A stretch of 63,969 bases of DNA from Psammoneis japonica. Lineage: Eukaryota. The position numbers were made by a program, and so were the translations under genes. The DNA is taken from contig QPGO01000306.1 of NCBI GenBank assembly GCA_008632985.1, positions 1-63,969 on the forward strand. The letters run 5' to 3'. Under the pieces are notes generated by a model. It saw nothing but the letters and a program-made list of their open reading frames with translations. It did no database searches and was not told the DNA's origin. Every line of letters starts with the position of its first letter. Position 1 is the stretch's first letter. Positions 7,141 to 44,699 of this stretch are shown piece by piece.

Positions 7141-7773
7141 ATTTTTTTTGAAAACGAGACTTGTTTCCGAGCAATCCAACAATCCCAGGCAAGCAGCAAG
7201 CAGCGCCAGTATCGTTTTCGTTTCACTCGATTTTGCGCAAGGATGAGGGAGTCGTCCGTCACATTCGTTGGGATGAAATTGCTCGAATGGAGCAAATTTT
7301 GAAAATAACAATGAAGAGACAGACAGTGTCAACATTGTACCGCCCGGTAGGTTGTAGGGCCCTAGGGCCCTACTACTCTCTACTAGGTACTCTACCGGTA
7401 GATATACACATAAATGGGCGTCAGCCAGGGCGTTTGCGCAGGATTGCTTCTGGTTCCTTTCAAGTCAAATTAGTACGACAGTCTTTTTTTAAAAGCCTGA
7501 AGGAAAGGAATCTCTAGAGCTAGGTCGAGTGTTTCTTTTGAAGAATCTTCAACCAATCAAAAATGCCGCTGCGGCGCACTCGTCCCGCCCATCAATTCAA
7601 TCTTAAAACACACACCGCTGCTTTCAGCGGCTACCTTAAGGCTTAGTCACGCCTGATTTTTCCTTTCAATCCACAACCATGGAATGGAGTCAGAGCGTCG
7701 GCACACAAAACAAATGCAACTGCGCTTGGCAAGTCGTGGAGCGCTTGATGACTGCACCCTTTCCTGCCATTGG

Positions 7774-10700
7774 TCAGTCTGTTGTGAAGGCAGTGGCCGC
7801 ACGTTTCGCTGTTGCTGCTGCCGCAAGCCAGTGTCTTTTAAAATCCATGTCTTTGGTTGGCACCTCCTCCATGGACTTAGAAAACCACCTGGCACACTGG
7901 GGCATGTCGGATGGGTGGTTGAAGAATTCTGCACATTCTTCTTCGATCCGCCCATCAAGAACGCTGTTGACAGTGAGTCTTGCTTCCAATGTTGGAGATG
8001 CAGCCGCCCACATTCTGTGTTGCCACATGTCCCATGCTGCATTCCACAGTTGTTGAATGAGACCTGCTGCCCATCTCTCACCTGCATTCCGACGCTGAAT
8101 GAATTCGCAGCACGACTGTTGAGCTGCTGCCCACTCCATGGCAAGGAATCCACGTGCCAGAGAGTGATCGCCAAGTTGCTCTTGTGCTGTGAAAGCCTGT
8201 TGCACCTGCAGATGATCCAATGTTGGTGCAGGACAAGGGAGCTCATCGTGCCAGCTCTCTGCAATGTGGACAACACCCTTCCGTAAGTCCGGGTGAGTTG
8301 AATGATCCGTCATCCACCTCTCCAAGCTTTCCACCTTTTTCTGCCACAGCTCCTGCGCCGCATGGGCCTTGCACTGTAGCATGTGGTCTGTTCCACCTTT
8401 GTTGTCCCCGCATCTTGGGCACGCTGCACTTTTCACTTTTTTCCAATGACACATGTTGTTGTTCGTGGGGACGAAGCCTGTGTTCCACTTTGGTTGCCAC
8501 AGTTGCTGAAACGTTGGACACCTGTGCATTGCTCGTCCCAGTGCTTGCCAACCGACAGTCACGTGGGTGTGTTCAATCTGCAGCTTCTTCTTCCAGCATG
8601 CTGTTGCAGGCGGACTGCATGTGTGATCAAGAACCATCATTTGTTCTTTCCATGATGTCAATGTTGTGTCACGCAGCCCAACCATCCAGATCGGTTGTGC
8701 AATCTTGCATGGAGTGGTGCCTTTGTGCTCTCGCAGAGCTTCCCAGCACGTTTTGGCTGAGAGATCCATTTCAACATTCAGTTGTTCAATGTAGGACAGT
8801 TCCTGCAATGGCACAATCTGATCCTTGTGACCCTCAACCTCGACAGCCTCCACTGTTGTCGGAAGTTCCTGAAGCACACTCCTGACAGTGTGGGTCAGAT
8901 CACAGTTGGTGAGAGTCGGATCATTGTAAGAGTTGCAGAAGCAGGTCCTCAATCCAAGGTTGCAGTTGCATGCAAGGGTCATCCTCCCGCTGCTGATGTT
9001 GTGCTGTTTGCACAGTCTTCAGAGAAATGCCACCATGCCAAAAACACCACCCAACTCCCCTCTGCAGGGCACAAGGTCTGTGGTCACTCCCAGCGTCTGA
9101 TTCACTCCCTTGTGCCGGTGTGAGTGTCCTTCACAGGGCAGCAAGATCATCCCTGCCGCTGCCAGTCCATCTTTGTGCGACCCATCTGTGTCACTCAAGG
9201 CAGTCCCATTTTCAATTCCTTGGACCAGTGCGGACAATTCCGGTTGGCGTCCGCATGGAATGAATGACCAATCCGTGTCACTGAGAGTTCTCCCCTGCTC
9301 TGCCACCTGCTGGATTGGTGATGTTCCTGTTGGTTTGATCCTGGTGCTGTTGCTTGTGACCTGAGTTGGCAAGGCGTCCTGTGGCATGGCATGGACGGTG
9401 CCATTTAGTTGATGCCGTGATTGCCTGTTGCGCCTGTTTTGAGGGAGTCTTGTGTGCAGTGCAATGCCATGCTCCTCATTGCAGCACACTCTGTCATCCA
9501 TTTCCGAATGCCACCATGCTGCAGTCAGTTTCTGCATCCACATTTTGAGTGGTCGCCAAAGTCGGAGTTGCTGGTTCCCACCTGCAACCAGGAAACTTGT
9601 TGTCAGTGCTTCTTGCCACAGTTGCCAACACGGTCTGGAGGGATGCCCTGCCTTTGGCCAGTTGTGCGTTGTCTGGCAGGTTGCAGTGCCGTGCCAACAG
9701 TCTGGGAGTGTCCTTCTGCCATCCCTGACACAATGTCCGACAAACATGCCACTTTCAGCCACATTCTGCACAGATTGATCTTCCTTTGATGGTTGCCTTT
9801 GTAGCTGTGTGCTTTGAATGCTTCCATCAAAAACATGTCATTTTGCCACAGCGTTGGAATCGTGACCATCGGGGCGTGCAATTCAATCAAGCATGATGAA
9901 CAGAAGTGCCACAGCAATTTGGTCCATGTCTTTGTGGCTAAAATTGCAAGTTTGTTGCAATCTAGTGAGAAGACATGGTCCCCATGCCCGAGTTCGAGCA
10001 CCATGGTTTCGCACACATGTTGTGTCTCTCTCCCTGTCATCAATGGTGTGTCCATTTGTTGCAAGTAGACCGCCACTTTTGCGGGTCCCTTGTTTCACAA
10101 AGAGTTCCAACAGGCCCAGTCCGTCAAACCGTTTTGGTGCATAGAGAATTTTCTTGGGGAATGACCGAGGACATCCCATTGCGGGCAATGCCACTTCGTA
10201 CAGCAGTTTCTCCATGTGTTTGCACTCTGCTTTTGTCAGAGATGTTGCTGCCAGTGGACACTCTGTGGATCGCATGATTCCACCAGTCAGAGAAAACCAG
10301 GCCTCAGTTCTGTTGAGATGTCTGCAACGCACTTGGTCTGCCCATTTTTCCACTTTGATTTCCATTGCCTCGATCTGAGCCTCCGAGTTCCCGTCTGGTG
10401 CGATGTGCACCCCCAGTGACTCTAGTGCTTCCGACACCTCAATTCTTTCTGCCATTGTCCTGTTTCCCTCATGATCTAGTGGGGTGATGTTGCCTGGTGA
10501 TTCCTCCTTGCTCTGATGAGTCCAGCGGTCATTTAGCCACTTGAAGGATGCAAGGGACCAGCAGCTTTTCTCTGGCACCAATGCACCTCCTGTGGCCCAG
10601 ATTCCTCCTTCCCAGCAACAAGACACATCTTGAATCTCATTCAGCACATCTTCGTACGTTGAGTCATCAGAGCCAGGGAAGCACGGAAGGTCTGTGTCAT

Positions 10701-13253
10701 CAACAAACGTGTGGCACACACAATGGCATGCGTTCTTAGAGATCGGTGTCATTGCCTGAATGCCGCAGCCTTCTGCTTGAGCGTGTCAATTGTTGGGATG
10801 CCAACCACAAGCCAAATGGCCGGTGCTGCTCTATGACCTTGAAAGATGCCTTGCAAGGGAATCTTGATGGTGCCATGTGGTTCTTCTGAATCTCCGTGTG
10901 CTGTTCTAACACAGTGCTTCATCTGCATCAGTGTCCCAGTCATCATGAAGACTTCATCCTCTCCTGCTCCAAACCTTCTCATGCACAGAGCGGCTGCTGC
11001 ATGAAGAATGCAATCACAGCATGATTTGGCATCCGTGCTGTTGACAGCTCCCAGTTGATGTGACTGGTGGAACATGTCTCCCATCAGTGCCTTGTTGAGA
11101 GCACACAGAATCACTTGATGCCTCTTCCTGCTGCCGCACACCTCCCATGGAATTGCTCTGCATGCCTCTGCATTGTTGACGAGGGCCCTTGCCATGTGCT
11201 TGTTCATCTTGTCATGCATGGCATCGAATGGTGCAATGATTTGAAGTTTCTTGACATGTGAGGAGTCCATTTTCTTGGGGATCATGACGTCTGTGGCCCC
11301 AGTCCAACACTTGGGTGCACATCCATGCTCAGCCGGAATGGCTGACACTCACAGGAGTCAAACTCCGCCAAGGTCTCATCTGAACACCCTGCCTTGTAAT
11401 CCAAGAAGGCCAAAGGGGCTGCTGGTTGTGTGAGCCTTCATTTTCTTCCAGCCTGTGACATGCTCCTTGGTGGTGCAGTCCAGACAGATGTCCGGGAGTG
11501 GTGGTTGTGGTCACTTGAGCTGCTCAATGTATTTTGCTGCGTGTTCATCCACTCCTGGGGGGATGACATGGGTTCCGTCTAGCACTCTTTTTGCTGCAGG
11601 GGCATGAAAATTACAGCCAAAATCCCTGAGGAGAGGTTCTTTCACAAATGGAGCTGTGCATTGCCTTGTTCGAGTTTGGCCACATCTGGAGCGTCCTTCT
11701 CCTTTGCATGCTTCCTCCATTCCCTCTTTCATTGAGAACACCTTGTCTCTACCCTGTTTGGTCCCGGTGCCGTGACTGTTTGAAGAGCCAGTCAGGTTTG
11801 CCAGTCACTCTTTTGATGCGACTGAACATTCTCTTTTGCCAGTGGCTGTGCCGAACAGTGCGTTCCTCTTTCTCCTGAGTCATGCCAATTCTTCTGCTTG
11901 TTTTGCACATCGGATCTTGAACTCATCTTGACAAAGCTTTGCAGCTCGTCTTTTGAGTTTGCAATGTTGTTTCATTGCCAATTTGTGTTCTTCTAATGCT
12001 TGGTGAGGTCGAAGCCTGAGCGCGTCCATCCGTCCTGCACACTGCATCCGCCTTTCAATGATCTTCATGCCAACTCTCCAAAAATGGTGCAGCTTGTACA
12101 CCAGTCTCCACAGGTGAATCTCTTTTCTTGCTTTGTTGATGACATTGCTGCACTCCACCTCGTTCATGTGCAGTTTCCTGCATTGCAATTTTGCCTCTAA
12201 CCTGATTTGATGATTCAGTTGAAAGATTGACTTGCACTCTTGTTGTTCCGCCAGGCCAAAGTCATCAGAGTTTTCCAGTCAAATGGCTCTTTGCAGTGGA
12301 TCGTGTTTAAGAATTGCTGCCACCACGAGCTGGATGTCCTTCTTCACAACCTTTGGATCTTTCAATTTTCCTGCCAATTGATCCAAGATGTTCTCTGAAA
12401 GCTTTGGTGGTGTGAAACCCAATGCACTAGATTTCAAAATGTCAACCCACAGGAGGCAGTGGTCGGAGGTGCAATCAAAGTCACCAAATCCTGTCATTCC
12501 TGCCTTCGTCACTTCTGAGGTGGGGGATGTGAGTGTTGCATCAACCAGAATGTTGGAACGATTCTTGTCACATGTTGCCACTGCTGGAAGGTCCGGATGG
12601 TTGGTTTTCAGTGCATCAATTAGATGAAGGGACCCACACCATGCAATGAATGTCGTCCCTTGAACACTCTCATTGAAATTGCCTCTGACTACAATTGGGT
12701 TGCCCTCTGCCTGCCATTCCTTGATGTGGTTTGCCACGTCTTCTGGCACTGTTTGTTGAGGACAGCAAAGATCATTCTTAGAGAAGAGATGTGTTTCTTG
12801 TTGTGAATGGACTCTTCCTGGATTCGCTTGATTGTCTCAAACCAGTCAACACACTGCGACAATCCTTGTGTGTGCGCCTGATTTGCCCCGCAGTCTCGCC
12901 CATGTCCATCTGCCCAGTCCTGATGGATCTTCTCCACTTGAGACTAAATGGTGATTGACATGCCTTGTTAAAAGTTGTCCCACCCCACTGCACTGTCTTT
13001 TGTTTTCCGTTGAACAGTGCTTGTCAGTTGAGACGAGAGAGCTGTGTTTTGAAAGGTTCCGCCATTGATCTTTCCATTGCTTGTGTTTGGGGATTTGCTT
13101 GAAGTTCAAATTAATCTCTGTTGAGCCCATGATGTCAGAATGGTGTTCTGTGATCCAATTCATTGTTCCTTTGTGTTTGTCCTCAGAAGAAGGTGAAACT
13201 GGAAGCCCTCCGACATCACGAAATGCAATTCTGATGACGTTGTGTCGTTTCAT
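7774..13253 (-). pseudogene. LINE ORF2 (APE-RT-RNaseH-zinc finger), frameshifted
   Basis: APE: IRIAFRDVGGLP, GNFNE, SDHCLLWVD. RT: DAKSCCDCI (=KSCYDRI), QGIFQG, FVDDTD. RNase H: TDGSHKDG, RGELGG, VEGHKD, LNVEMDLSAK. Finger: CPRCG..HMLQC. Confidence 0.85.
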
Positions 13254-13305
13254 TGATGTGCTGTCTCCCCATGCCTTGTCCAGTTGACGACCAGCAGTGT
13301 CTTGA

Positions 13306-15642
13306 TTAACGTCCTCCTTTTGCGGTGGTTGTCGTGACCACTGAGGATGGCAGGGACTGGGGATCCTGGCCTGCTCCCTCGGCCTGAGAGCTGGGATGAT
13401 CTTCTGGGTCTCCTTGCTTGGAGTCCATCTGGGCCAAACCAGTGTCTTGGTCTTTTTCTGCTGGCAGCTCCTCCAATTCTTGAATCAGTGCTTTGTTCTG
13501 TTCTTGTGCTTCCTTTAATTTCAATCTGGTCAAGGGCACAGTTTTGACAGATGCACCCTCCTCTTGTTCGCATTCCTGATGATTCTCCAGATTCTCAAGG
13601 TCAAAGGTTGCCGAGCGTCTCGTGGCGGATGCATGCTGCGTGTCATTGTCCTTGTTCCTTGTGTGGCCAACAGATTCCACATCAGCAGCTTGGGATGGTT
13701 TTGCAGCCACTTCCTGTGCTGCTGCAGGTGGGGATTTGAGACCAGCTCCCATCCATCTGCTTGCTTCTTTTTGAGCATTCAATTCAGAGAACTTCCGTCT
13801 TTCCGCACCATCCGCTTGTGCTTTCTCATCAGTCCACTGCTCTTCCACACCCCAGGGGTCCTCCTTGATCACATCTGACAACATTTTGCTGTCCTTGGAT
13901 GTTGTGAGTCCAGTTTCTGGATCACACTTTGACTGCTTGTACATGGCTGTCCCTGTGGCTGTGAACCAGGGTTCTGCGGAGGCTCCACAGACATGCAAAC
14001 ATTCCGGGACAATGTTGTTGATCATTTGTGCCACGTGATCAACCAATTTCCTTGGGAATGTGATTGCATGATCGGTCGGTCTATTCCACTTGACATCAAG
14101 ATGATGAATCAGTGGAATGATCTTTTCTGGATTGGTGGGATCTGGAATCCTTTTCTGCATGAGATGTTGCAGTGGTGCCATCTCTCCACCAGTGGCATGT
14201 GTCTTACGGTCCGGGTTGTCTAGAAAGCCAAAGTCAAGTTGTCCCACAACTTTCTGACAAAAGAAGTGTTGACGTTTTTGGAATTTGTTGATGTTCTTGT
14301 TGGTTTTGTCTGAGGCATGCTGTGTGGTGGAGTTTGAACAGCAAGGAACAAAACTTGGTTCCAGTCCTAGATCCTTTTTCCTGGCACCTGCCCTCCACAG
14401 TTGTTCAGCTGCGAGCTTGACTTTGTGCGCTTTGCTGGACTCAACAATGACATGAAGAGCTTCCGGATTCTCAGTCGGTGCATTTCTGTCAAAGGTGGGA
14501 CGTTTTCTGTCCCTTCCTGCAATGGATCTCCATTGAATGCCCAGGCTGTCACAATCTTTGCCTGAGCCAAGAGCTTTGCCAAACTGTTTGTGTGGTGTCC
14601 GCTCGCTCATTGTTTTGGTGCTCTGATGCAACCATCCAATGCATTCAAAGTGCATTGATTGACAAGGCATGGGGTTGTGTGCGATGGAGAATTTGCCTTT
14701 TTCCATGTCAGCAAACATCCCTGAAAGTTGAGAGCCACAGTTTGCCACAGTTCAAGGACTGCAATCTTCTGACACCTGGATGAGATGAAGTTGGCAGCAT
14801 GTCGTGTGTTCACAGTTGGCTCTTGGGTTGAGATGATTGACTCCCAGGAAGGCGCTTAAGATTTCTCTTTCTTTTGCTGGTCCTTCCGGAACATCTTCTG
14901 GAGAGGCCAGTTCACCAAAGGTGTCCTCTAGATCAGGGTCCCATGTGCCAATGCGTGCTTTGTGTCCAAGCATCTCCTGCGTTGTTGCAAACAATTCTCT
15001 TGGGACAGAAGCCACTGCTTTCAAGGGCTTTTTGGAAGGTGGGATGGTTGGAAATGCATTGCATCACAACTGACGCCAAGGGATGCCTTCTGCTTGCTCA
15101 GTGGATTTGGTTTCTTGTGGTGTGTTGGTTTGCTGCAACTCCCTGTCATTCGCTTCTTCCTCATTTTCTTCGTCTTGTAGTGTGTTGGTTTGCTGCAACT
15201 CCTTTTTGTTCGTTTCTTCCTTGTTTTCTTTGTCAGATTCTGTTGAATGGTTTTTGCTTGTGAGTTGTTGAAAGGTTTCCTCTTCATCTGAGGGTTCTTC
15301 ATGCATGTGATCTTCTTCTGTGATTGCAATTTCCACCGGAGTGATTGCTTTTGTGTTCTCATCTTTTTGGTTTTTTCTGCCACGTGTGAAAGGTTTCTCA
15401 TCGTCCGGTGTGAATTTTTTCTCCTTGGTGTTGTCTTCCTTGGTGCGTGAATTGTGCGTAGAATTTGTGCAGGAGTTTTTGGTTTTTATGGTCTTCCACT
15501 TGTTTGTTTCATTGTTCCGTTCCTCATTGTGAGATCCTTTGGTTGTTTCATTGATTTGACCTTTGCCCTTTTTCTTTTTGTCTCCTTTGTGTGGTGAGGT
15601 GTTTTTCTTTCCGCCGGTGCTTCTGCGTTTTGTGCCACCCAT
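13306..15642 (-). pseudogene. LINE ORF1, fragmented
   Basis: Basic/acidic low-complexity N-terminus MGGTKRRSTGGKK and consecutive fragments (15064-15642, 14752-15024, 13306-14748) directly upstream of ORF2. Confidence 0.65.
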
Positions 15643-15783
15643 TGTGCAATTTTTTTAGCTTGTTGTTTGTGCGCATCAAAGGAACAGTCAAAGCCATTGT
15701 TGTTGCATTGTGCACCAGGGCCCTGCTGCTGTTGCTCTGCTCTGCTCTACTCTAAAAATCACACACGCAAAACAAGAATCAAA

Positions 15784-17842
15784 ATGGGAAAAAAGACGGC
15801 TGATGCAAGTCTCAAGGGCAAAAAGCCCATTCATCGAGGCACTCAAAAGATGGCCACTGCGTCCAATCCGGGTTGGATTGGGAACAAACTGAAATGCTTG
15901 GAAATGCACGGAAAGCATCTCATGGAAAAGAAGCGTCAAAAGAACATGGCTCATCGTCAACGCGCCAAGGAAGCCAAGGCACTCAAAGAAGAAGCTCCAG
16001 CAAAGCCCACGCTGCGAACTCTCCAAAACACGCGCGAGTTGGAGCTGTTGGAAATGGTGGGTTAAAAGTTCAAACACCAAAATTAGACAGTGTGAAGAAG
16101 ACGCATGTGTCAGCGCTCATGTGCTCCACGTGAAGCAACAAAACTGCCGATGGAAGCAGTCATTGTTCTCTTTTGACTGTTGCAATTTATCTTTCTCTCC
16201 ACCAGGGTCAAGGATCCAAACAAATCGGATTGGCCAAAGCTGGCGAGGCTCATGAATTTCCTCAAGACAACCCATCTTGATGTCACAGTCATGTCGGCTG
16301 GAGAAAAAGTCATCATTGAGTGGCACACGGATGCCGCATTTGCAGTCCATCCGGACTGCAAAAGTCACACAGGTTCTGCCATGACCCTTGGAAAAGGTGT
16401 CATTGCATCAGTCAGCACGAAGCAGAAGATCAACACCAGGAGTTCTACAGAAGCAGAGATTGTCGCAGGAGACAATGTTTTGGCAAAGGTCCTTTGGACC
16501 AAGTGTTTTGTTGAAGCTCAAGGTTTTGAAGTCAAGCGTGACATCATGCATCAAGACAACCAAAGTTGCACGAAACTAGAACAAAATGGCAAGGCCAGCT
16601 TGGGCAAACGCATGGGACATTTCAACCTCAAGCATTTTTACATCACTGACCTCATCAAGCGAGGAGAACTTGAGATTGAGTTCTGCCCAACAGACAAGAT
16701 GATGGCAGATCACATGACCAAACCAGTGGTTGGTAAAAAGTTCATTGTTGATCGTCAAGCCATCATGAACATCCAAGTGCCCAAGATGGTCAAATTTGGA
16801 AACAGCAAGAATCTTGTCATTGGTCAGCAGGAGTGTGTTGGAAATGGTGAACTAAAAGTTCAAACACCAAAATTAGATGGCGTGAAGAAGACGCATGTGT
16901 CAGCGCTCATGTGCTCCACGTGAAGCAACAAAACTGCCGATGGAAGCAGTCGTCATTCTCTTTTGACTCTTAGAAAGCATTGTCATAACAAGCTTGTCCA
17001 TTTTGGCCTCAGGATCAGACCTCAGAGGATTGAGGTGGCTCTGGAATGGTCACCAGAAGGATAAATTACAACAGCAACCAATGCCAGCAAAACCACACGA
17101 TGAACAAGTTGCCGCCAATGAAGCCAAAGATGGGTTTGCACCGCACTTTGATGATCAAGTGTGGCCCAAAATGCTCATCACCACAAGACCACGTCCGTTG
17201 AAACAGCTCTTTTATTTCATTGCAGACTTGCAATGATTCATTCCGCAAGTGCACTTTTGTCCTCTTAAATCCTTTACAGTCAAGGAAATTTGTGGCTTTG
17301 CTGCCAATCGCGGCTTTGCCCATTTGATTGTGTTGAGTGAAAAGTCCAAAGCATGCAATGGCATGACCATCTTGCACATGCGGGTGCAAAAAGGACACGT
17401 GACGGCCGGCCCCACCGCCTCTTTCAAGGTGAGCAATGTCATTTCATTGACCAACGTTCCCAATCATGGGTCGGCCGCCAGCCACATTCCCGAATTGGTC
17501 TTGAATGGATTTGGAACACAACTTGGACATCAGGTCGGGCATTTTTTGGGGAGTTTGTTTCCACACAATGCTCAGTTTCAGGGACGGCAAGTGGCGACCT
17601 TTCACAATCAGCGGGACTTTGTCTTTGTCAGACATCATCGACATGTCTTTGAGCCGTCCAAGAATGTCAGCAAAGAAACACAGCAACCCAAGACCAAGGC
17701 AAGGTTTAAAGAATTGGGACCTTGATTTGCTCTCAAGCTCTGGTGGATTCAGGAGGGTGCATTTGACACCATGTTTGGTGAGTGCAAATGGATTCACAAG
17801 CGCAAAGAGATGGACACGACGTGCAGAAAGTTTCACTTGTAA
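15784..17842 (+). pseudogene. RPF1: RPF1-like Brix-domain ribosome biogenesis protein pseudogene, interrupted by Copia
   Basis: N-terminus ..IGNKLKCLEMHGKHLMEKKRQK..TLQNTRE; after the insertion PKMLITTR, GPTASFKVSN, HIPELVLNGFGTQLG, GRQVATFHNQRDFVFVRHHRHVF, ELGP*FALKL, RKFHL*. Internal stops. Confidence 0.85.
16046..17073 (+). mobile_element. Internally deleted Ty1/Copia (CoDi-like): partial LTR, RNase H, PPT, LTR
   Basis: Direct repeat TGTTGGAAATGG.. at 16046 and 16836, the second preceded by CAGCAGGAGTG. ORF 16180-16923 carries Copia RNase H motifs DAAFAVHPD, SSTEAE, QDNQS, ADHMTKP. Right end approximate. Confidence 0.85.
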
Positions 17843-18252
17843 GATTTTGCTGGCAGTGCAGCACCGGCAGCACAGCTGATGATTGTCAATGATCCATTGT
17901 TTGCAAGTTTTTTGTGTGGTGCTGAAATGCTAAAGAACATGCACATGGATTGGATGTGACCCAGTTGGTTCCCTGTCACATGTTCGACATGCCGCCGCCG
18001 TCTTGCACCATTTCGTGAAGTCGCGTGCGTCATTGTCTTCTGCCTTGTTTTTGAGGCTTGGGGTTTTGGGGGGAAAATTTTTCAACAAAAGGGGGGATCC
18101 CCCAGATGAAAAAGCGGGGGTCCAGATTTTGGAAAGCACTGAGAATGGATGATCAAACAAACCTAGAAAGCTTCAACTGTTGGTGCCTGGACTGACCTGT
18201 CATTGCATGCAAGGAATGGAGACAGTCTCATCTTGTTTGATAGAATTCTTGT

Positions 18253-18400
18253 TTAGTTTTCATTGAAAAAGAAGTTCCTCAGCAGAGAAAAGATGTGCTC
18301 GGCAGCACCAGAAGATGGCTGAACTAAAGCAACGAGGCATGGGAGTGGAGCTGCATGCAGAAGCGGCGGCTTGTCACCGGATGATTCATCTGCAACAGGC
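18253..18400 (-). pseudogene. hAT-like transposase C-terminal dimerisation fragment
   Basis: LVALVQPSSGAAEHIFSLL resembles the hAT PxSSAxxERxFS motif; lies in a decayed TpA-poor block (about 18060-20880). Confidence 0.4.
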
Positions 18401-20885
18401 GCATCTTCCACCGTCACATTGTTTTCATTGTCTCTTGTCTCCGTGCTGTGTTGCAACTTGCAACTCACCACTTGCTGCAAAATGGCACACTGCGTGCTGC
18501 GCATGATGCACTCACAACCCAGGTCTGCCAGACACAAACAAACTGCCCCCCCCTGCTCCCCCAAAACCCTTGAGCCCATGTGTCAAGGCTTGTTCTTGTC
18601 TGCAAAACAAAATGCTGTGTTGTGCATTGCCCATCAGTGCAGCTCAGGATCTCACATCATGGTTGTTCCATCGCCCTGTCAGAGAAAGCAAACTTGTGCC
18701 CTCCAACCTTGTAGAATGCCATCTTGTGCATGGTTGGAGAGTGCACTTGCACTTGACTTGATGGCAACTGAGGAGATTCTCTGCCATTGGTTGTCTCATG
18801 GTCATGCCACAGCCACAAGATTCAAAAACAGCTTCAGAGTTGAAATTGGTTCAAAGACAAAAGTGAGAATTGGCGTGGCAAAACAAAAAGCATTGGCAAC
18901 AATCATCAAAAACACAGCCACAACAGTCGTGCGGTGCTCCAAACCAAAAGAGCTCACATGGAAGGGTGCCACAAAAAAAGTGCAAGCAGGAGCAGAAGGA
19001 TGCATTGTTTTTGCTTTTGTGCTGAAAAACACAACAACAAAAGCAAGGCTTCTTTCTGTTTTGTCCTTTCCTCTTTTCCAGGCTGCTGCTCTCATTGTGG
19101 CCAAGCACTGACGAGGAGCAGGTGACAAGGTTGTTGGGTTGGTGGGTGGGTCACAGCTCATGGTGTGGTGCTGGCAGCCATGCAGCAGGCTGCACAAAGG
19201 ATGCAGAGATGACCATGGGCTCCAGCTCTGCAAGGTGCAAGAGGGGGCACAAGGGTGCTTGCATGGAGTGTGGTGAGCTCTTAGAAACTCACAATGAAAC
19301 TGCAGTCTCTGGTGGTGAGTGCGCAAGTTGGCCAATTTGTCTGCTGTGCACCTGCTGACATGGTGAAATGCAAACTGAGTTTGCAAAGCGCTGGTGGCAG
19401 CTCAGGGAAGTTGTGTTGTTCCAAGACCAAATGGTCACCTTGTGCAATCCTGGGCCAATCATCAGGACAAAGATGCTGCAGCACCCTGGTCTGCTGGTCA
19501 GGCACAAGACATGCTGGTTCTAGCTCAGGGGTGAGCAAGCAAGGTGGTCAAGCAATCTGTGCCTCATGGCAGTGCAAGGGCCGGCCAAGGGCCAAATTGA
19601 TCAACACATGCACATTGACTTGCTCTTTGGCCAAGCAGGGGCCCAAAACTGAGGTGGCCCTGTTTTCCGGTGTTGTGCACATCAAGCAGACTAAAACCTC
19701 CTTCCCAAAACAGCTTGGCAACTGTGCATGCTGCAGGAAAACAAAGATGAAGGTGTGGCAGATTTCACACAAATGCATCATGTTGATGCAAACCTTTCTC
19801 TTTCCGCAAACAATGCCCTGGTGGGAACAAGAGCCAGCGGTTGACAAATCACTGAAGCAAAGCTCAAAACACACAACACGCACCCATCATGATGCAGGCA
19901 AAACAGCTCAAAACCCAAAAAACCAAGAGCAGGCAAGGGCCATTGTCATCTTCTGTTGGTCAGATCTCATTGCACCCTTCTTGATCTGCCAAAAGGCCCC
20001 CACACCAAGAAAAATGGCCAGCTCATTGTTGCTGCGCCTGGCGTTGCCATGATGAGTGCTGGCAATGGCGCAAATGTGCTGGAGGCCATTGTTGCAGCTG
20101 CTGGGGACCCCACCACTTTCACTGCAGTGAGAGCAAACTCACCACATGCCAGCACCAGATGCTTTGCCCTGGATGCTTTGTTGCCCCAGACCAGAGCCAT
20201 GCCATTGTGGCTGGTGGCCACACACAAAATGTGTCCAAAATCACCTTTGCAAGTCTCCAGCCCACAAACTCACATGTGAGCCACCCTCAATTTGCTGCAG
20301 CAATGCACCCATGCACAGCCACAGAGCTGTTTTTTTTTTCCTGCCAGCCCTTTGATGAAGAAGACACAATCATAGAAGTCGTTGTCGCTCCATGGCAAGA
20401 AGAGGCACTGGCGCGAGAGCGCAAAAAAATTGAGCAGAAGCCAATCTTGTGCACCTGACAAACAAGCAGGCAAGGCATGCTTGTGTTGCAACTCCCTGGG
20501 AAGGCGGTCCATTGGGTGTCTTTTGTGAGGCAACGAGGCTGCTCCCCCAGATGTTGCCTTGTGCTGCACGTGTTGTCCTTTGTGCAAAATGTGCCTTTGT
20601 TTTCTGAGGCAACTCTGCCACAGATGGACTGTGCAATCTCGCGGTTGTTTGTTTGGCAGACGATGGTTTCGCTTCTCCATTGTTTGTTTTTTCCTCGTTC
20701 CACGTGGAAGCAGAATGACCAACGATCCTGATCCTAGCTTTGCGAACTAAACTTTGCAGCCTGTTTTAGCCGTTTTCTGGCCTTTTTGGCCTCTTTAGGA
20801 CGTTTTGACGCTTTTAGGCTTTTCTAGAGTGACAACAGTTGTGGCGGTTTGTTGCTGTTTCAGGCTCTTCTGTTTGGATTGCGGA

Positions 20886-21176
20886 TGCCAAGTGGCGCCA
20901 AGCAACAGTGTGAAGCAGCGTTGTAAAGTTGACTGTTGCTAACATTGTGAGAAGAAATGAAAGAGATTCGGCTGCTCCGAAATCTCGTAGAATTAACACT
21001 AAGAAACCGCGTAGAAATGTGAAGAAACAATCTTTCGAGAGGCATCGAGATGTATCGAGAAAGGAGAAGAGGTTTCTAGAAAGTGTCATCGTTGACATCC
21101 TTTTGACACTTTTGACACCAGGTTGACACCCACGAATGAATGTACGAATGAACACAGATGACCGTGACATTCGGCA
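20886..21176 (-). repeat. 3' LTR of Gypsy copy A
   Basis: 291 bp, one of four copies, adjacent to the PPT. Confidence 0.95.
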
Positions 21177-21197
21177 CTCGCTTCCCCAATTGAGACG

Positions 21198-24100
21198 TTA
21201 GAAGACAGGGTGAAGACGGCGGATGTTGATACGTTCAGTGACGTGAGGCGAGCGCTGGATGGTAACGGTTCCATTGGTGTGGACACGTACGATACGGAAA
21301 GGACCATCTTTGGTGTTGAGTTTGCGTTGGATGTCTTTGGTCATAACGAAGACTTGATCGCCGATGTTGTAGTCGCAAGTAAGACGTTTTGCGTTTTCGC
21401 GGAGATTGTTGCGTAGGACATCGCGCTTGCGACGGGTGTTAATCATTTTCCAGTTCGCAAGATAAGTAGCAGAAATGACCATGTCTCGACCGAAGACAAT
21501 TTGTCCGGGAGACGACATAAGGGCAGTATGGTAGGTACTGCGCAAGGCCCATGCAACGGATTGCAAAATTCCATGAATTGTGTCTTCATCATGATCGCGA
21601 GAAGGGAGATCCATCGCACGGAGAGAATCGGCTATCACTTGATGAATACGTTCAACGAACGCGTTGGCTTGAGGATTCTTGATTGTTGTAGGTTTCGGTT
21701 TAACACCATAACTGTAGAGGAGATCTGTAAACTCGGAAGTGAATTCGGAACCGTTGTCATAAATGACAATTTCTGGTCGCGGATAGCGACAAAACCACTC
21801 GCGATCGACGATAAGTGAAATGTCTTCGGACGTTTTGAACTTATAGTTCGCGAGTTCGACCCAACGGGTTGCGACATCAATAATTGAAACGGCTCTGATT
21901 TTGCGATCGACACCATTTTTGTCGGCACACGTCCAGGGACCGAAAAGATCGACTTGAGTTGCCTGCCAAGGTTTATAAGTAGTATCTGGAAGAGGCAATT
22001 CGCCATAGTTTGCCGTAGTACGCTTGGATTTGGAACACGTGCGGCACTTACGGACAAAAGTACGGACTTTCGTCTGCATGTCGCGAATGTAAAAATGTGA
22101 AGCCAAAGTTTGGTGGGTGCGATTAGCACCAGGATGGCAGAGAGTTTCATGGTGCCACCGTAGAACTGCAGGAAAAAGCGTTGGAGGGAGGACAATCTTG
22201 TTCTTGTAAAGGACAATCTGTTTTCCGTTGAACAGTTCGGCTGAGTAGGATTCGGACTTGTCGAGTCGTTGCTGAAGAGCAGAATCTTTTTTCTGATGGT
22301 CGGCGATAATATCGAAAGTAACGGGGAATATTGAAGGATCGATTTCCAACGAAGTCATTTCCTCGTAATCGCTTTGATCGACTTGGACAATAGGATGGCG
22401 ACTCAAAAAATCAGCCACGACATTCTTGTGGCCTGGCAGGTACTCGAAAGAGCAATCGCATTCCTCGAGAAGCAAACGCCAGCGTTTGACGCGTTCTGAC
22501 TTGAATTTGTCAAATGTAAGATTTTTGTGATCGGTAAATAGGCAGCATCGATGACCAAAAAGGATGCTTTTGAAATTTTCGGTCGTTTCCACGAGCGACA
22601 GTAGCTCTTTTTCCATTGTCGTGTAGTTTCGTTGCGCTTGAGATGATTTTCGGCTGTAGAATGCAATTGGCCATTCGCCATCGTCAAAATCTTGAGTAAT
22701 TATTGCACCAAGTTGATAATCACTCGCATCCGGATAGACATTGAAAGGTTGAGAGAAGTCGGGGAATCGGAGGAGGATTTCGCGTGCCATAATTTTTTTC
22801 ATCTGATTGAAAGCTTCCGTGTGGACGTCAGTCCACTTGAATTTGACTTTGTCTGATGACAGCGCAGTTAAGGGCGTAAGAGTGTGGCTGCGTCGGTACC
22901 ACAATTTCTTGTAATAATTCACGAATCCGATGAAACCACGTAATTGTCGACGGTTTTGAGGGCGAGCGAAGCGAAGTGAGGGCAGGATTTTCTTTTTCTG
23001 AGGCTGAACACCTTTTGTAGTCATGGTATAGCCTAAGCAGTCGACGGTCTTGGCGGCAAGATAGGATTCTTCGACATGTGCGTGAAGATTGTTCGCGAGG
23101 AGCCGTTGCAAGACGAGTTCGAGTCGTTGACAGTGATGGTTGAAGTTGTTCTTGGTAAAGAGGATGACATTGTCGATGTAGACTATGATATCTTCCACAT
23201 CATGAAAAATGTCTGTCATGTAAGCTTGAAAAATATCGCTTGCCGGTTTGATTCCTTGCGGTAGGCGGTTGTAGCAATACTTGCCCCACGGCAGGATGAC
23301 ACCGCAGAGTTTTTTTGACTCGTCGTCAAGCACGAAGTGACAGTAGCCTCGGTTGAGGTCCAAACATGTCGCATGGGTAAAGCCGTTCATTTTCCATACG
23401 ACGTCGTCGATAATAGGTAGTGGATATGGATGCCGTTCGAGACACTCGTTGAGTTTCCGTAAATCGGATAAGAAACGGATACCACCGCTTTTCTTTGATC
23501 GAAAAAGACAGGGTGCGCCCCAAGGAGAGTGAAGTTTGCGCGTAATAACATCGATTTTTTCCAATTCATCCACTTCTTTGCGAGCCATGGGATATAACGC
23601 TTGCGGAATAGTGTAAGCTTTCGCACAGCATGGACGCGATCCTGGTTTCAGGGTCAAATGGACGGGTTTACCGGGTACAGCTCCAAGTGTACCATCGAAT
23701 AATTGCGGGTATCGTCCGAAGAGTTCGATGAGTTGGTGCTGTTGATCGTTATCAAGGTGTTTGCAGCGTAGAACCATGTCGCGATAATTGTGCTTGTCGT
23801 ACGCATTGCTCGTCATACCTCGAACTTGACGGTTGACGGCATTCTGGAAGAACTTGGGTAATTCAGCATCGCCGGGATGAATTGCATTAACTTCGACTTG
23901 GTCGAAAGAGCCCTTGGATCGCATGGATAGGGTAACATCGCCCCACGTGATTGTTTGATGTCGAAAATCAAAAACGAGTCCCATTTCTGTGGCGGTTTTC
24001 TTCCGATGATAACATCGTGTTTTCCTACGGCTTTGTCTTCCACATGAGCATCGACGGAAACCTTCTTGGACGATGCGAAGTCTGGGAACTTCAATGTCAG

Positions 24101-25420
24101 CGTCGCAATCTCGTGTAGATTAACGGTGCTGTAACGGCCTTTAACGGGAACGTCACATTTACGGATTTTGTGAGGAATCCCGCGAAGGGCTGAGCGCTTC
24201 ACAAAATTGCGATTTGCGCCGGTGTCGAGTGGAGCAACACGGAACTTGTGCATTCCAGAATGAGCATCAATCATCTGGACACGCGCTTCCGTGGCAAGAT
24301 TGTCTTCTATTTCGGATTCGATGGAATCGTCTAGAAGAGACGTGACGTCTTCAAAAATGTCGTTGACATCGTCTGACGCGACGCTATCGACATCGTTAGA
24401 AGCGGAGCGACTGGCTTTGGAGTCCACATTATTGTTTTCGACGTTCCGTGTGCGGCTCCGTGTGGGACAGCGGTGTGTCGGCTCGTTTCGAGAGTTATTT
24501 TGTTGATTCGGCGCACTCCGATTTGCGCGGTTCCGCTCATAATTTTCACGTTCACGACGGATGACATTGCACTCTTGACCGTTCGGATGTACAACGCCAT
24601 GGATTGGACATGTTTGTTCACTGTTGTTTTGATTCCTGTTCCTGGTGTCGCGATTTTGGTCGTTGTTCTGGCCGCGACGCGCATTTCGACCGTTGTTGCG
24701 TCGATTCCGATTGTCATTGCGTCTGTTGTCATCGGTAGACCCTTTGTCACCACGTCGTTCCATACGTCGGAGAGTCTCGTAGTGTTGAGCTTGGTCGTTC
24801 AAGTTTAAGTTGCGAAGACGGGCTTTAGTCTGAGTTTCGGCCCATGATCTTGGTCCACATTTTCGAAGGATTACGGACAATTCCGCTTCCGTGAATGACG
24901 GAACTCTTTCGGCGTCATCTTCGGTTGGCGTAGGCATGACATTAATCAACTTATTAAAGCGACGGATGTCATTAACAAATGACTTGACAGTTTGGTTCCT
25001 GGGTTTCTTGAGGCTTTGAAGCCATTCCTTGGCATCAAGGGCAATTTCTCCATCCATGCATTGGAGCAGAAATTCTTCACGACAAGTGTCGAATGTAACT
25101 TGGTCGCGGTTTTCGTATTCGTCTACGACGATTTCCCAGTCGTCTTTTGGTGTTCCGGTCATAAGTCTGGTCACGAGCCGGAAACGTGGCTGTCCTTCAG
25201 CCGCACCGAGATCGTTGACAAGTTCATCGAAGTTTGACCAGAAGGTAAGAACATCTTCCGGTTCAGTTGAAGCTAACTTACGTACCTCGATCGTAGTTTT
25301 AAGCCCATCTGGATCGTCAGGATCAATGGGGCTTTCAAAAGACACGAATTGGTCTTTGCGTCGCTCTTCCTCAGAGCGGTCAGGATGCTCAAGTTCGAAT
25401 GGGCAGTTTTCTGCTGACAT
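21198..25420 (-). pseudogene. gag-pol of copy A with a 1-bp frameshift near 23996-23999
   Basis: ORFs 23813-25420 and 21198-23984; 4 T versus 5 T in copy B at GGCGGTTTT(T)CTTCC. Confidence 0.9.
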
Positions 25421-25493
25421 GTCTGGTCAGGACAATATGATCGGTAGATATATCTCAAGAGAGATAAATAAGTGTTTGGGAGTAAATTTACTA

Positions 25494-25784
25494 TGCCAAG
25501 TGGCGCCAAGTAACAGTATAAAGTAGCGTTGTAAAGTTGACTGTTGCCAATGTTGTGAGAAGAAATGAAAGAGATTCGGCTACTCCGAAATCTCGTAGAA
25601 TTAATACTAAGAAACCGCGTAGAAATATAAAGAAACAATCTTTCGAGAGGCATCGAGATGTATCGAGAAAGGAGAAGAGGTTTCTAGAAAGTGTCATCGT
25701 TGACATCCTTTTGACACTTTTGACACCAGGTTGACACCCACGAATGAATATACGAATGAATATAGATGACCGTGATATTCGGCA
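25494..25784 (-). repeat. 5' LTR of Gypsy copy A
   Basis: 291 bp, upstream of the gag ATG at 25420. Confidence 0.95.
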
Positions 25785-26610: not shown

Positions 26611-26666
26611 ATCCTATACATTTTTGTTGTAGTGTTTTAGTAAAGAATAGAGTCGATGTCACAGTA

Positions 26667-27763: not shown

Positions 27764-28054
27764 TGCCAAGTGGCGCCAAGTAATAGTATAAAGTAGCGTT
27801 GTAAAGTTGACTGTTGCTAATATTGTGAGAAGAAATGAAAGAGATTCGGCTACTCCGAAATCTCGTAGAATTAACACTAAGAAACCGCGTAGAAATATAA
27901 AGAAACAATCTTTCGAGAGGCATCGAGATGTATCGAGAAAGGAGAAGAGGTTTCTAGAAAGTGTCATCGTTGACATCCTTTTGACACTTTTGACACCAGG
28001 TTGACACCCACGAATGAACACACGAATGAACATAGATGACCGTGATGTTCGGCA
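27764..28054 (-). repeat. 3' LTR of Gypsy copy B
   Basis: 291 bp TGCC..GGCA. Confidence 0.95.
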
Positions 28055-28075
28055 CTCGCTTCCCCAATTGAGACG

Positions 28076-31000
28076 TTAGAAGACAGGGTGAAGACGGCGG
28101 ACATTGATACGTTCAGTGACGTGAGGCGAGTGCTGGATGGTAACGGTTCCATTGGTGTGGACACGTGCGACACGGAAAGGACCATCTTTGGTGTTGAGTT
28201 TGCGTTGGATGTCTTTGGTCACAACGAAGACTTGATCGCCGATGTTGTAGTCGCAAGTAAGACGTTTTGCGTTTTCGCGGAGATTGTTGCGTAGGACATC
28301 GCGTTTGCGACGGGTGTTAATCATTTTCCAGTTCGCAAGATAAGTGGCAGAAATGACCATGTCTCGACCGAAGACAATTTGTCCGGGAGACGACACAAGG
28401 GCAGTGTGGTGGGTGCTGCGCAAGGCCCATGCAACGGATTGCAAAATTCCATGAATTGTGTCTTCATCATGATCGCGAGAAGGGAGATCCATCGCACGGA
28501 GAGAATCGGCTGTCACTTGATGAATGCGTTCAACGAACGCGTTGGCTTGAGGATTCTTGATTGTTGCAGGTTTCGGTTTAACACCACAACTGCAGAGGAG
28601 ATCTGCAAACTCGGAAGTGAATTCGGAACCGTTGTCATAAATGACAATTTCTGGTCGCGGATAGCGACAAAACCACTCGCGATCGACGACAAGTGAAATG
28701 TCTTCGGACGTTTTGAACTTGCAGTTCGCGAGTTCGACCCAACGGGTTGCGACACCAACAATTGAAACGGCTCTGATTTTGCGATCGACACCATTTTTGT
28801 CGGCACACGTCCAGGGACCGAAAAGATCGACTTGAGTTGCCTGCCAAGGTTCATAAGTAGCATCTGGAAGAGGCAATTTGCCACAGTTTGCCGCAGTGCG
28901 CTTGGATTTGGAACACGTGCGGCACTTGCGGACAAAAGTGCGGACTTTCGTCTGCATGTCGCGAATGTAAAAATGTGAAGCCAAAGTTTGGCAGGTGCGA
29001 TTAGCACCAGGATGGCAGAGAGTTTCATGGCACCACCGTAGAACTGCAGGAAAAAGCGTTGGAGGGAGGACAATCTTGTTCTTGTAAAGGACAATCTGTT
29101 TTCCGTTGAACAGTTCGGCTGAGTGGGATTCGGACTTGTCGAGTCGTTGCTGAAGAGCAGAATCTTTTTTCTGATGGTCGGCGACAACATCGAAAGTAAC
29201 GGGGAACATCGAAGGATCGATTTCCAACGAAGTCATTTCCTCGTAATCGCTTTGATCGACTTGGACAATGGGGTGGCGACTCAAAAAATCAGCCACGACA
29301 TTCTCATGGCCTGGCAGGCACTCGAAAGAGCAATCGCACTCCTCGAGAAGTAAACGCCAGCGTTTGACGCGTTCTGACTTGAATTTGTCAAATGCAAGAT
29401 TTTTGTGATCGGCAAACAGGTAGCATCGATGACCAAAAAGGATGCTTTTGAAATTTTCGGTCGTTTCCACGAGCGACAGTGGCTCTTTTTCCATTGTCGT
29501 GTAGTTTCGTTGCGCTTGAGATAATTTTCGGCTGTAGAATGCAATTGGCCATTCGCCATCGTCAAAATCTTGAGTGGTTGCTGCACCAAGTTGATGATCA
29601 CTCGCATCCGGATAGACATTGAAAGGTTGAGAGAAGTCGGGGAATCGGAGGAGGATTTCGCGCGCCACAATTTTTTTCATCTGATTGAAAGCTTCCGTGT
29701 GGACGTCAGTCCACTTGAATTTGACTTTGTCTGATGACAGCGCAGTTAAGGGCGTAAGAGTGTGGCTGCGTCGGTGCCACAATTTCTTGTAATAATTCAC
29801 GAACCCGATGAAACCACGTAATTGTCGACGGTTTTGAGGGCGAGCGAAGCGAAGTAAGGGTAGGATTTTCTTTTTCTGAGGCTGAATACCTTTTGCAGTC
29901 ATGGCATGGCCTAAGCAGTCGACGGTCTTGGCGGCGAGATAGGATTCTTCGACATGCACGTGAAGATTGTTCGCGAGGAGCCGTTGCAAGACGAGTTCGA
30001 GTCGTTGACAGTGATGGTTGAAGTTGTTCTTGGTAAAGAGGATGATATTGTCGATGTAGACTATGATATCTTCCATATCATGAAAAATATCTGTCATGTA
30101 AGCTTGAAAAATATCGCTTGCCGGTTTGATTCCTTGCGGTAGGCGATTGCAGCAATACTTTCCCCACGGCAGGATGACACCGCAGAGTTTTTTTGACTCG
30201 TCGTCAAGTACGAAGTGATGGTAGCCTCGGTTGAGGTCCAAACATGTCGCACAGGTAAAGCCGTTCATTTTCCATACGACGTCGTCGATAATAGGTAGTG
30301 GATATGGATGCCGTTCGAGACACTCGTTGAGTTTCCGTAAATCGGATAAGAAACGGATACCACCGCTTTTCTTCGATCGGAAAAGACAGGGTGCGCCCCA
30401 AGGAGAGTGAAGTTTACGCGTAATAACATCGATTTTTTCCAATTCATCCACTTCTTTGCGAGCCATGGGATATAACGCTTGCGGAATAGTGTAAGCTTTC
30501 GCACAGTATGGACGCGATCCTGGTTTCAGGGTCAAATGGACGGGTTTACCGGGTACAGCTCCAAGTGTGCCATCGAATAATTGCGGGTGTCGTCCGAAGA
30601 GTTCGATGAGTTGGTGCTGTTGATCGTTATCAAGGTGTTTGCAGCGTAGAACCATGTCGCGATAATTGTGCTTGTCGTACGTGTTGCTCGTCATACCTCG
30701 AACCTGACGGTTGACGGCATTCTGGAAGAACTTGGGTAATTCAGCATCGCCGGGATGAATTGCATTAACTTCGACTTGGTCGAAAGAGCCCTTGGATCGC
30801 ATGGATAGGGTAACATCGCCCCACGTGATTGTTTGATGTCGAAAATCAAAAACGAGTCCCATTTCTGTGGCGGTTTTTCTTCCGATGATAATATCGTGTT
30901 TTCCTACGGCTTTGTCTTCCACACAAGCATCGACGGAAACCTTCTTGGACGATGCGAAGTCTGGGAACTTCAATGTTAGCGTCGCAATCTCGTGTAGATT

Positions 31001-32299: not shown

Positions 32300-32372
32300 G
32301 TCTGGTCAGGACAATGTGATCGGCAGACACATCTCAAGAGAGATGAACAAGTGTTTGGGAGTAAATTTACTG

Positions 32373-32663
32373 TGCCAAGTGGCGCCAAGTAACAGTATAA
32401 AGTAGCGTTGTAAAGTTGACTGTTGCTGATGTTGTGAGAAGAAATGAAAGAGATTCGGCTACTCCGAAATCTCGTAGAATTAATGCTAAGAAACCGCGTA
32501 GAAATATAAAGAAACAATCTTTCGAGAGGCATCGAGATGTATCGAGAAAGGAGAAGAGGTTTCTAGAAAGTGTCATCGTTGACATCCTTTTGACACTTTT
32601 GACACCAGGTTGACACCCACGAATGAATGCACGAATGAACATAGATGACCGTGATATTCGGCA
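32373..32663 (-). repeat. 5' LTR of Gypsy copy B
   Basis: 291 bp TGCC..GGCA. Confidence 0.95.
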
Positions 32664-39233: not shown

Positions 39234-39689
39234 TGTGAATGGATGGCTTTGCTTTGCATGCAGCAGTCGACCAGAGGTGATGCTGTTGTTGTTGTTCATG
39301 CTGGAGCCTTCGCGCGTCGTCGTCGTGCGGTGTGTTGGTGCAGTTGGTGGGAGTTGCACAATGACCCCACCCGCGTTTTGTACTGATTTTCTACGACACA
39401 TAGTGTCCGTTAAATGCTGCGAAAACACGTAGAATTCTACGGAAGAAGTCATAACTTGTGTTATAAGATATTTAAGACCTAAATAAGATATATCAAATTT
39501 CTACTGAAAGATTGCGTTCAGTTCTTAGTATGTAGAAGTCATACAACGATCACTTCTCATTCCTTTTTCCGGAAAAGGGTGTCATGCTGTACGATTTCGA
39601 ACCACTCAACGCAATGTCAATCAATTGTACTCCGCATCAAGCAATTTATCAATCAAGCAATTGATGTAATCTTCTGCCAGCGACCTGAC

Positions 39690-44385: not shown

Positions 44386-44699
44386 ATGCACAATGTTGTT
44401 TAGAGTTTTTTACGTTGGGGTTGAAAGAATCCCATTTTTCAACAGTAGCTAGGGCGTCTCTCCTACTTTTACTTTCCGTGTCTATTGAAATCACACCTGC
44501 TTCCACAAAACCTTGCCAAAGAACCACGCAGCGTGTGCCGGATAAGCACGAATCATGATAGGACCCAAGCCGCGAAAGAGACCCAGAAAGCCACGCTCGC
44601 GATCGATGCGAAATCATTTCTGGAAAGCAGCTGCCAAGAATCATGACATCCCGTCGAGATCGGACGCTGTTTTTTGGCAAGTCAAATGGCATGGCAATT

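Follow-up and report, generated by a model that had tools for sequence, protein, structure and literature searches.

Probable post-integration hypermutation at TpA in transposon domains of a Psammoneis japonica contig

Compositional blocks in the window

We analysed positions 1 to 63,969 of contig QPGO01000306.1 from Psammoneis japonica (assembly GCA_008632985.1); this whole stretch of 63,969 nucleotides is called the window below. The window is nuclear eukaryotic DNA carrying long uninterrupted genes for an LRR-Roc-TIR protein, a MATE protein, a haem peroxidase, a PDK/BCKDK-type kinase and a methyltransferase. For two of its genes, all named homologues were from diatoms (Odontella, Fragilaria, Chaetoceros, Seminavis, Nitzschia, Cylindrotheca and others), the best identities being 53% and 74%. 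It also holds four blocks from which the dinucleotide TA (TpA) has almost disappeared, and two young Ty3/gypsy retrotransposons in which the change of TA into TG or CA is in progress.

Dinucleotide observed/expected ratios (o/e), computed in 500-bp windows along the stretch, fell into two compositional states with abrupt edges. Genes and young elements had a TA o/e of 0.3-1.0 and a CG o/e close to 1. The four blocks (about 7650-20500 and beyond, 33250-34750, 39600-42000 and 44500-52900) had a TA o/e of 0.00-0.19, a CG o/e of 0.00-0.8 and a TG+CA o/e of 1.3-2.1. The signature was present in 98 of the 246 one-kb windows of this stretch. The blocks and the young elements, with their long terminal repeats (LTRs), are the following.

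7650..20880, no strand: block B1; TA o/e 0.10, CG o/e 0.39, TG/CA o/e 1.6-1.7
20886..25784, minus strand: young Ty3/gypsy element E1; LTRs 20886-21176 and 25494-25784; target-site duplication GCGGA/ACGGA, with one mismatch
27764..32663, minus strand: young Ty3/gypsy element E2; LTRs 27764-28054 and 32373-32663; target-site duplication of 5 bp, CCGTA, without mismatch
28100..29600 (alignment columns 498-1835), no strand: patch within E2; 38 of 58 TA sites converted, CpG intact
33250..34750, no strand: block B2; TA-poor and internal to a high-copy element that has terminal inverted repeats; TA o/e 0.04-0.20
39600..42000, no strand: block B3; TA o/e 0.00-0.04, CG o/e 0.03-0.34; content without family match
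44500..52900, no strand: block B4; TA o/e 0.00-0.19, CG o/e 0.00-0.33; content without family match

A preliminary description of this DNA had reported that, between 7630 and 20880, TpA and CpG were both nearly erased and the sequence was saturated with TG/CA. For TpA and for TG/CA this was borne out by the counts. TA occurred 88 times against 848 expected from base composition (o/e 0.10), and it was likewise depleted in all blocks; TG occurred 1494 times against 923 (o/e 1.62) and CA 1258 times against 731 (o/e 1.72). With CG at 312 against 796 (o/e 0.39), the surplus of TG+CA (1098) offsets most of the deficit of TA+CG (1244). The statement on CpG stood in part. Near-erasure was limited to stretches of older appearance, at 18.5-20.2 kb, 39.6-42 kb and 44.5-52.9 kb (CG o/e 0.0-0.3), whereas the part of B1 that consists of a long interspersed nuclear element (LINE) kept a CG o/e of 0.3-0.5 at a TA o/e of 0.1.

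Genes adjoining the blocks keep ordinary TA, and the left edge of B1 lies about 190 bp from the start of the unaffected LRR-Roc-TIR gene. The signature is thus localised to domains of integrated mobile DNA.

Direction, timing and context of TpA change in two young gypsy copies

E1 and E2 are 96.6% identical and differ at 167 alignment columns. Transitions accounted for 159 of the 166 substitutions, and 135 of the 167 differing columns were of the TA<->TG/CA class. Counted by site, 116 of 239 TA sites differed; among CpG columns the count was 11 of 738, and among the remaining columns 20 of 3696. The 135 columns included 19 TG<->CA doublets, best read as one ancestral TA changed on opposite strands in the two copies. 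Two host paralogues served as a control (1-1509 and 5537-7036): of the 246 substitutions between them, just 26 belonged to the TA<->TG/CA class.

The two LTRs of one element are copied from a single template by reverse transcription and are identical at integration. All differences between the LTRs of the same element were at TA-derived sites (15/15 in E1 and 8/8 in E2, 23/23 together). Moreover, the mismatch in the E1 target-site duplication results from TA>TG in the flanking DNA. Since the LTR pairs started out identical and the flank was changed too, the changes arose in chromosomal DNA after insertion. The 29 events that could be followed in the LTRs comprised 25 TAY>TGY or RTA>RCA changes (Y, pyrimidine; R, purine), three TAA>TGA and one CTA>CCA, in agreement with the earlier remark that the former predominate and TAA>TGA is less frequent. 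In E1, the left LTR, which abuts B1, carried 14 TA changes and the right LTR 3.

The influence of neighbouring bases was measured by treating the two strands of each TA as separate targets. The rate of change depended solely on the base 3' of the A: 17/244 for A, 47/280 for C, 14/166 for G and 57/266 for T (p=3.5e-6), that is about 0.19 before a pyrimidine and about 0.075 before a purine. In contrast, positions -3, -2, +2 and +3 had no significant effect on the TA change rate at the E1/E2 sites. The site classes behaved additively, with 58/130 RTAY, 16/54 YTAY, 54/232 RTAR and 7/62 YTAR sites changed. The preliminary description had named the absence of a flanking-base bias as refuting its proposal; a bias is clearly present.

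The same rule was visible in what survives. YTAR made up 51 of the 88 TA left in 7630-20880 (TTAG 16, CTAG 13, TTAA 11, CTAA 11), as had been noticed by inspection; outside the affected parts of the window its share was 250 of 1377 (Fisher p=1.7e-15). Across the four blocks, residual TA was YTAR in 67/123 cases and RTAY in 8/123; the respective background values were 250/1377 and 367/1377. As an A before a pyrimidine (T-A-Y, equal to R-T-A on the other strand) is changed about 2.5 times more often than an A before a purine, YTAR sites survive longest. The proposal that the A in T-A-Y is the preferred target was therefore upheld as regards the directional loss and the 3' pyrimidine bias, while, judged from the sequence, the attacked base could as well be the T in R-T-A.

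Changes were strand-symmetric, with 62 to TG and 73 to CA (p=0.39). Same-strand runs, as expected of a processive deaminase acting on single strands, were not in excess over the whole copies (39 runs, p=0.37, and 25 runs, p=0.25). In the E2 patch, a hand count gave 15 same-strand runs against about 21 expected, a post hoc and weak indication. The changes were distributed in patches (heterogeneity p=3e-4 in E1 and 2e-6 in E2). The strongest was the E2 patch listed above, with a TA o/e of about 0.2 over 1.5 kb and a CG o/e of 1.1-1.4; at the same columns, E1 had 6 of 58 TA sites converted.

This spectrum bears on a mechanism put forward in the preliminary description, in which a Y-family polymerase of the Pol eta type would write A>G at WA (W, A or T) during error-prone repair of the domains. 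Pol eta is known from somatic hypermutation to produce A>G at WA, which speaks for it. However, a 5' T is obligatory here and AA is spared: the 31 non-TA differences between E1 and E2 contained about one A<->G at AA. Transversions were also rare (7/166 substitutions). We did not retain this mechanism and consider it very unlikely.

Contigs assembled from two public runs of the same organism were placed on 26000-36000. They gave 26 listed differences from the window. At 20 of these, the reads had TA where the window has TG or CA; the reverse was found twice, and four differences were of other kinds. In single-copy flanks the only listed differences were at 26282, 26743, 32825 and 32854, and all four were TA in the reads. 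One contig joined 27758 to 32664, skipping exactly E2 plus one CCGTA copy, at the depth of single-copy DNA. An allele lacking the insertion therefore exists, so that E2 is recent and still polymorphic and the gypsy family was recently active. It follows that the haplotype carrying the insertion lost the flank TA, as a leakage in cis. An indirect view of the de novo rate is also provided: although still polymorphic, E2 already has its 8 LTR differences, all TA-derived. At five places inside E2, contigs showed the TA form and the TG/CA form alike, so that the variation exists within the read data themselves. Read depth was about 180-1600 over E2 and 60 over unique DNA. B2 was covered by read contigs at a likeness of at least 97% with no listed difference, and it was TA-poor in the reads too.

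The read data allow a sequencing artefact to be weighed. A long-read base caller might have misread modified bases (5-methylcytosine in CpG, an altered A or T in TpA) as TG/CA; such an error would likewise be confined to domains and fall at random on TG or CA. The 20 of 26 differences with TA in the reads are what it would produce, and at several of them no contig backs the window letter. However, the contigs reproduced the TA poverty of B2 and contained both forms at the five places inside E2, while the empty-site contig reveals two haplotypes, which account for the flank differences. The LINE described below also has frameshifts. In addition, the same signature is described in Illumina mutation-accumulation lines of Bigelowiella natans in the main text of a preprint (Mettrop et al., bioRxiv 10.64898/2026.01.13.699255, April 2026). 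Altogether, a base-calling origin is most improbable.

Editing at the RNA level was also considered. An ADAR-like enzyme could convert A to I in transposon transcripts, and retrotransposition could then fix the changes. ADARs favour a 5' U, and retrotransposons are among the affected elements. However, both strands were changed equally, the within-element LTR differences were at TA sites without exception, single-copy flanks and a target-site duplication were changed, and the 3' preference was for Y and not for G. The LTR, flank and strand data exclude RNA editing, to which we attach almost no probability.

B2 belongs to an element at 33014-35022 whose read depth was 2500-4700, as compared to 60 for unique DNA. 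The element has terminal inverted repeats of 126 nt, which are 93% complementary (33062-33187 and 34897-35022), and carries internal repeats of 181-202 bp; in one contig variant, 34053-34228 is missing. This family may be one that escapes hypermutation for want of TpA targets.

Contents of the affected blocks and loss of CpG

B1 contains the following features.

7777..13484 (frame 13370 to 7825), minus strand: near full-length LINE, ORF2-like; motifs read by eye
13309..14751, minus strand: 481-aa open frame 5' of LINE ORF2, possibly LINE ORF1; no identification
16177..16920, plus strand: fragment like the C-terminal (RNase H) part of Ty1/copia Pol; read by eye, no Pfam match
17237..17722, within 17000-17900, plus strand: pseudogene of ribosome production factor 1 (Rpf1), a Brix-domain protein; E=6e-18 to Brix and E=6e-33 to Rpf1 chains

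In the LINE, endonuclease motifs (GNFNE and SDH), reverse transcriptase motifs (DAKSCCDCI and FVDD) and a CCHC knuckle could be recognised by eye, though the read-through LINE proteins gave no match in Pfam. The decayed motif pointed out earlier was confirmed: the window reads DAKSCCDCI where the consensus of 16 aligned relatives is DAKSCYDRI. ORF2 carries 12 in-frame TGA codons and a frameshift near 10750-10785, and the dead LINE region still has open frames of 200-480 codons.

A representative library supplied 3290 LINE relatives. Tyrosine made up 0.2-0.5% of the window LINE as compared to a median of 2.8% in relatives, and cysteine 3.8-4.4% as compared to 1.7%; none of the best 150 relatives had less than 1% Tyr. 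At 16 conserved Tyr columns (Tyr in at least 9 of 13 relatives), no Tyr was left in the window, which had Cys at 10 of them, His at 4 and other residues at 2. Cys corresponds to TAY>TGY and His to TAY>CAY. Because Tyr codons are TAY, the context rule predicts more Cys than His at lost Tyr, as was seen. Arginine was retained at 18 of 35 conserved columns and replaced by Gln (4), His (3) or Cys (3) at ten others. Judged from the sequence, these Arg replacements are the CpG route.

In 80 related LINE loci from metagenomes, TA o/e was 0.55-0.89 and CG was ordinary. The signature was found in none of their 1811 one-kb windows, in a scan that demanded an intact ...C[YF]DR... or QGNGA motif and was hence biased toward unmutated copies. 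These comparisons indicate that the composition of the LINE is acquired and not inherited from its family. They bear directly on the idea that the elements were born, or selected to be, poor in TA and CG. B2 fits that idea, being high-copy and uniformly TA-poor, so that at least one family spread in this state. In contrast, TA and CG are at ordinary levels in the relatives of the LINE, its conserved Tyr and Arg were specifically replaced, and the young gypsy copies were caught while changing. Intrinsic composition is contradicted for the LINE and the gypsy copies, and as a general account it is extremely unlikely.

The copia-like fragment is bracketed by a 136-nt direct repeat (16046-16181 and 16836-16971, 93% identity), pointing to nested insertion or to duplication within this old block. 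The Rpf1 pseudogene is flanked by in-frame TGA stops on both sides; one of them lies at a site that we take to be Arg in solved Rpf1 chains, the alignment stopping short of it. Either the neighbouring LINE family produced this pseudogene as a retro-copy, or the domain has engulfed a host gene; a functional Rpf1 copy should exist elsewhere in the genome. Since it has the composition of B1, the rule covers whatever sits in the domain, beyond transposon sequence. The near full-length LINE, the copia-like fragment and the Rpf1 pseudogene support in part the earlier label of 'old repeats', although most of the block is without repetition within the window.

The other blocks were less informative. 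Among 124 open frames of at least 90 aa from the four blocks, none matched a transposon family in Pfam (0/124), Brix being the sole match. Searches with the young gypsy Pol against the blocks (tblastn) and of block against block (tblastx) revealed no kinship. Inside B4, 47150-47453 recurs in direct orientation at 52450-52775, about 5.3 kb away and with 70% identity; this diverged repeat could be the LTR remains of an old element; the interior between the repeats gave no family match, and a 376-aa frame of B4 had no usable match in a protein atlas search.

CpG followed a different course from TpA. B3 and B4 had a TA o/e of 0.03 and a CG o/e of about 0.1, while TpA loss in the E2 patch and in the LINE ran ahead of CpG loss. 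Together with the lower rate at CpG columns between the young copies, this supports the earlier view that CpG decay is slower than TpA loss and is layered on top of it. The pattern resembles the CpG decay of methylated transposons: CG>TG/CA in these domains (CG o/e 0.0-0.5 in blocks) and Arg (CGN) replaced by Cys, His or Gln at 10/35 conserved LINE columns. That decay is an ordinary process, slower than the TpA process seen here. Diatom transposons are methylated, and the CpG loss is most simply explained by deamination of 5-methylcytosine.

Proposed process, known systems and neighbouring genes

We propose that the transposon domains of the window have undergone post-integration, DNA-level hypermutation at TpA, with the same signature as in B. 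natans but here in a diatom, and with a slower CpG decay on top; we give this reading a probability of roughly 0.8. In this process, TpA would be converted to TpG or CpA (A:T>G:C) on either strand, after integration, in domains occupied by transposons. It would require a 5' T and prefer a 3' pyrimidine, be restricted to domains and episodic, act in patches of about 1-1.5 kb and leak a few hundred bases into single-copy flanks. Its rate is about 45 times that of other substitutions, per base. Of these traits, the present data show the signature itself, the direction of change, the dependence on context, the action after insertion, the equal treatment of both strands and the restriction to domains; the chemistry and the targeting are proposals. 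The expected end state is a sequence nearly devoid of TA and CG and saturated with TG/CA. By the genetic code, TA>TG/CA creates no new stop codon. Elements are therefore inactivated through amino-acid replacements, such as Tyr by Cys or His, and keep long frames. Because such transposons retain long stop-free frames and lose their Pfam signals, they could be mistaken for orphan genes in diatom annotation.

For the chemistry, we give even odds to a polynucleotide adenine deaminase that turns adenine in DNA into hypoxanthine. A TadA-like enzyme, the other mechanism put forward in the preliminary description, is a candidate: TadA and ADAT2 act on A34 after the invariant U33 of the anticodon loop, which would explain the obligatory 5' T. 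For targeting, we lean slightly toward chromatin or methylation state, and not sequence repetition, as the determinant.

The attacked base could instead be thymine. A TET/JBP-type dioxygenase would oxidise the T of R-T-A, yielding 5-hydroxymethyl- or 5-formyluracil, whose mispairing with G would lead to T>C. The strand-symmetric footprint is compatible with this route, 'A then Y' being equal to 'T after R' on the opposite strand. Base J and 5-hydroxymethyluracil occur preferentially at TpA in other protists, and 5-formyluracil causes T>C mutations. However, no TET/JBP-type enzyme or modified base was seen in the window or in the literature consulted, and the main text of the B. natans preprint prefers adenine deamination, as a proposal (10.64898/2026.01.13.699255). 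Oxidation of thymine is thus a rather improbable route.

Several points weigh against TpA hypermutation by a deaminase, or limit its reach. Independent read support covers 26000-36000 only, and thus not B1, B3 or B4. B2 is high-copy at a likeness of at least 97%, so that its TA poverty predates its spread and is no sign of age. The ancestral state is assumed to be TA where the young copies differ; the read contigs agree at 20 places and show the reverse at 2. The E2 patch may come from a mutated source copy, in which case the strictly in situ changes are the LTR and flank differences. No deaminase is found among the genes encoded within the window, and the footprint does not discriminate between A and T as the attacked base. 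Targeting by chromatin state is drawn from a single window, and methylation at CpG is read from composition.

In our literature search, the B. natans preprint was the single report of the TpA signature, and no report in diatoms was found. According to its main text (10.64898/2026.01.13.699255), 230 of 231 mutations in two integrated viral regions were A>G or T>C, all GC-biased changes were at TpA, and the rate was about 1000-fold over background in some lines only. ADAT2 is proposed as a candidate, and TpA-poor clusters rich in CpA and TpG are enriched in reverse transcriptase and DDE domains. The near-exclusive A>G/T>C changes, the restriction to TpA, the action on both strands, the foreign DNA as target and the irregular occurrence are all as observed in the window. 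The hosts differ, B. natans being a chlorarachniophyte (Rhizaria) and the present organism a diatom-like stramenopile. So do the targets, which are giant-virus and virophage inserts there and LTR, LINE and copia-like retrotransposons and a pseudogene here. The words CpG, flanking, trinucleotide and retrotransposon are absent from the main text of the preprint (10.64898/2026.01.13.699255); relative to that text, the T-A-Y rule, the co-erosion of CpG, the LTR test and the flank leakage are new.

Fungal repeat-induced point mutation (RIP) shows similarity in that transposons are hypermutated by transitions at the DNA level, at one dinucleotide, with leakage into flanks and compositionally skewed blocks. 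RIP, however, converts CpA to TpA and makes stops. Here TpA is lost and conserved Tyr becomes Cys or His, whereas RIP would have gained TpA and created stops; no stop can arise. As to duplication, on which RIP depends, a single-copy region is affected in B. natans according to the preprint, and dependence on duplication is no established feature of the window. AID/APOBEC enzymes share hypermutation of mobile DNA as a defence and a short sequence context. APOBECs, however, deaminate C (G>A on the plus strand), mostly in single-stranded cDNA before integration and on one strand, in contrast to the A:T>G:C changes on both strands after integration observed here. TadA, ADAT2-ADAT3 and adenine base editors resemble the proposed process in converting A to I beside a 5' U/T; the natural enzymes act on tRNA, and activity on DNA is engineered or, as cited in the B. 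natans preprint, claimed for a few ADAT2 proteins. Stramenopile-only deaminase-SAM-Tudor proteins, described by Iyer et al. 2011 (PMC3239186), are a candidate lead.

To our knowledge, the known eukaryotic hypermutation defences (RIP, AID/APOBEC) all deaminate cytosine. A natural genomic A:T to G:C process was previously represented, in the literature searched, by a single preprint, which concerns one rhizarian alga. That the signature recurs in a diatom suggests wide distribution or repeated invention. The present data add a second eukaryotic supergroup, retrotransposon targets, post-integration action, spread in cis and an order of TA loss followed by CpG loss. They also supply testable rules: preference for T-A-Y, action on both strands, patches, flank leakage and a lagging CpG loss. 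All current adenine base editors are built on an engineered tRNA enzyme, and the enzyme responsible here would be of direct interest as a route to a natural A-to-G DNA editor. As a bolder and still doubtful extension, diatoms might possess a natural chromatin-guided T-A-Y DNA adenine deaminase that rewrites new mobile DNA while its insertion is still polymorphic and extends in cis into the flanks. With the same activity in Rhizaria, this could be an old and widespread defence mirroring RIP and APOBEC, from which some families escape by shedding TpA.

Two further features of the window were noted. At about 60100-60900, a 575-N assembly gap lies within a stretch of lower G+C (0.37-0.38). Next to B1, two tandem LRR-Roc GTPase paralogues at 3-1856 and 3586-7464, both on the minus strand, are 83% identical over 1.5 kb. 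The second is complete and also has a TIR domain. Both contain internal 84-bp tandem repeats, corresponding to a 28-residue LRR, and resemble innate-immunity receptors; they directly adjoin the hypermutated block and are untouched.

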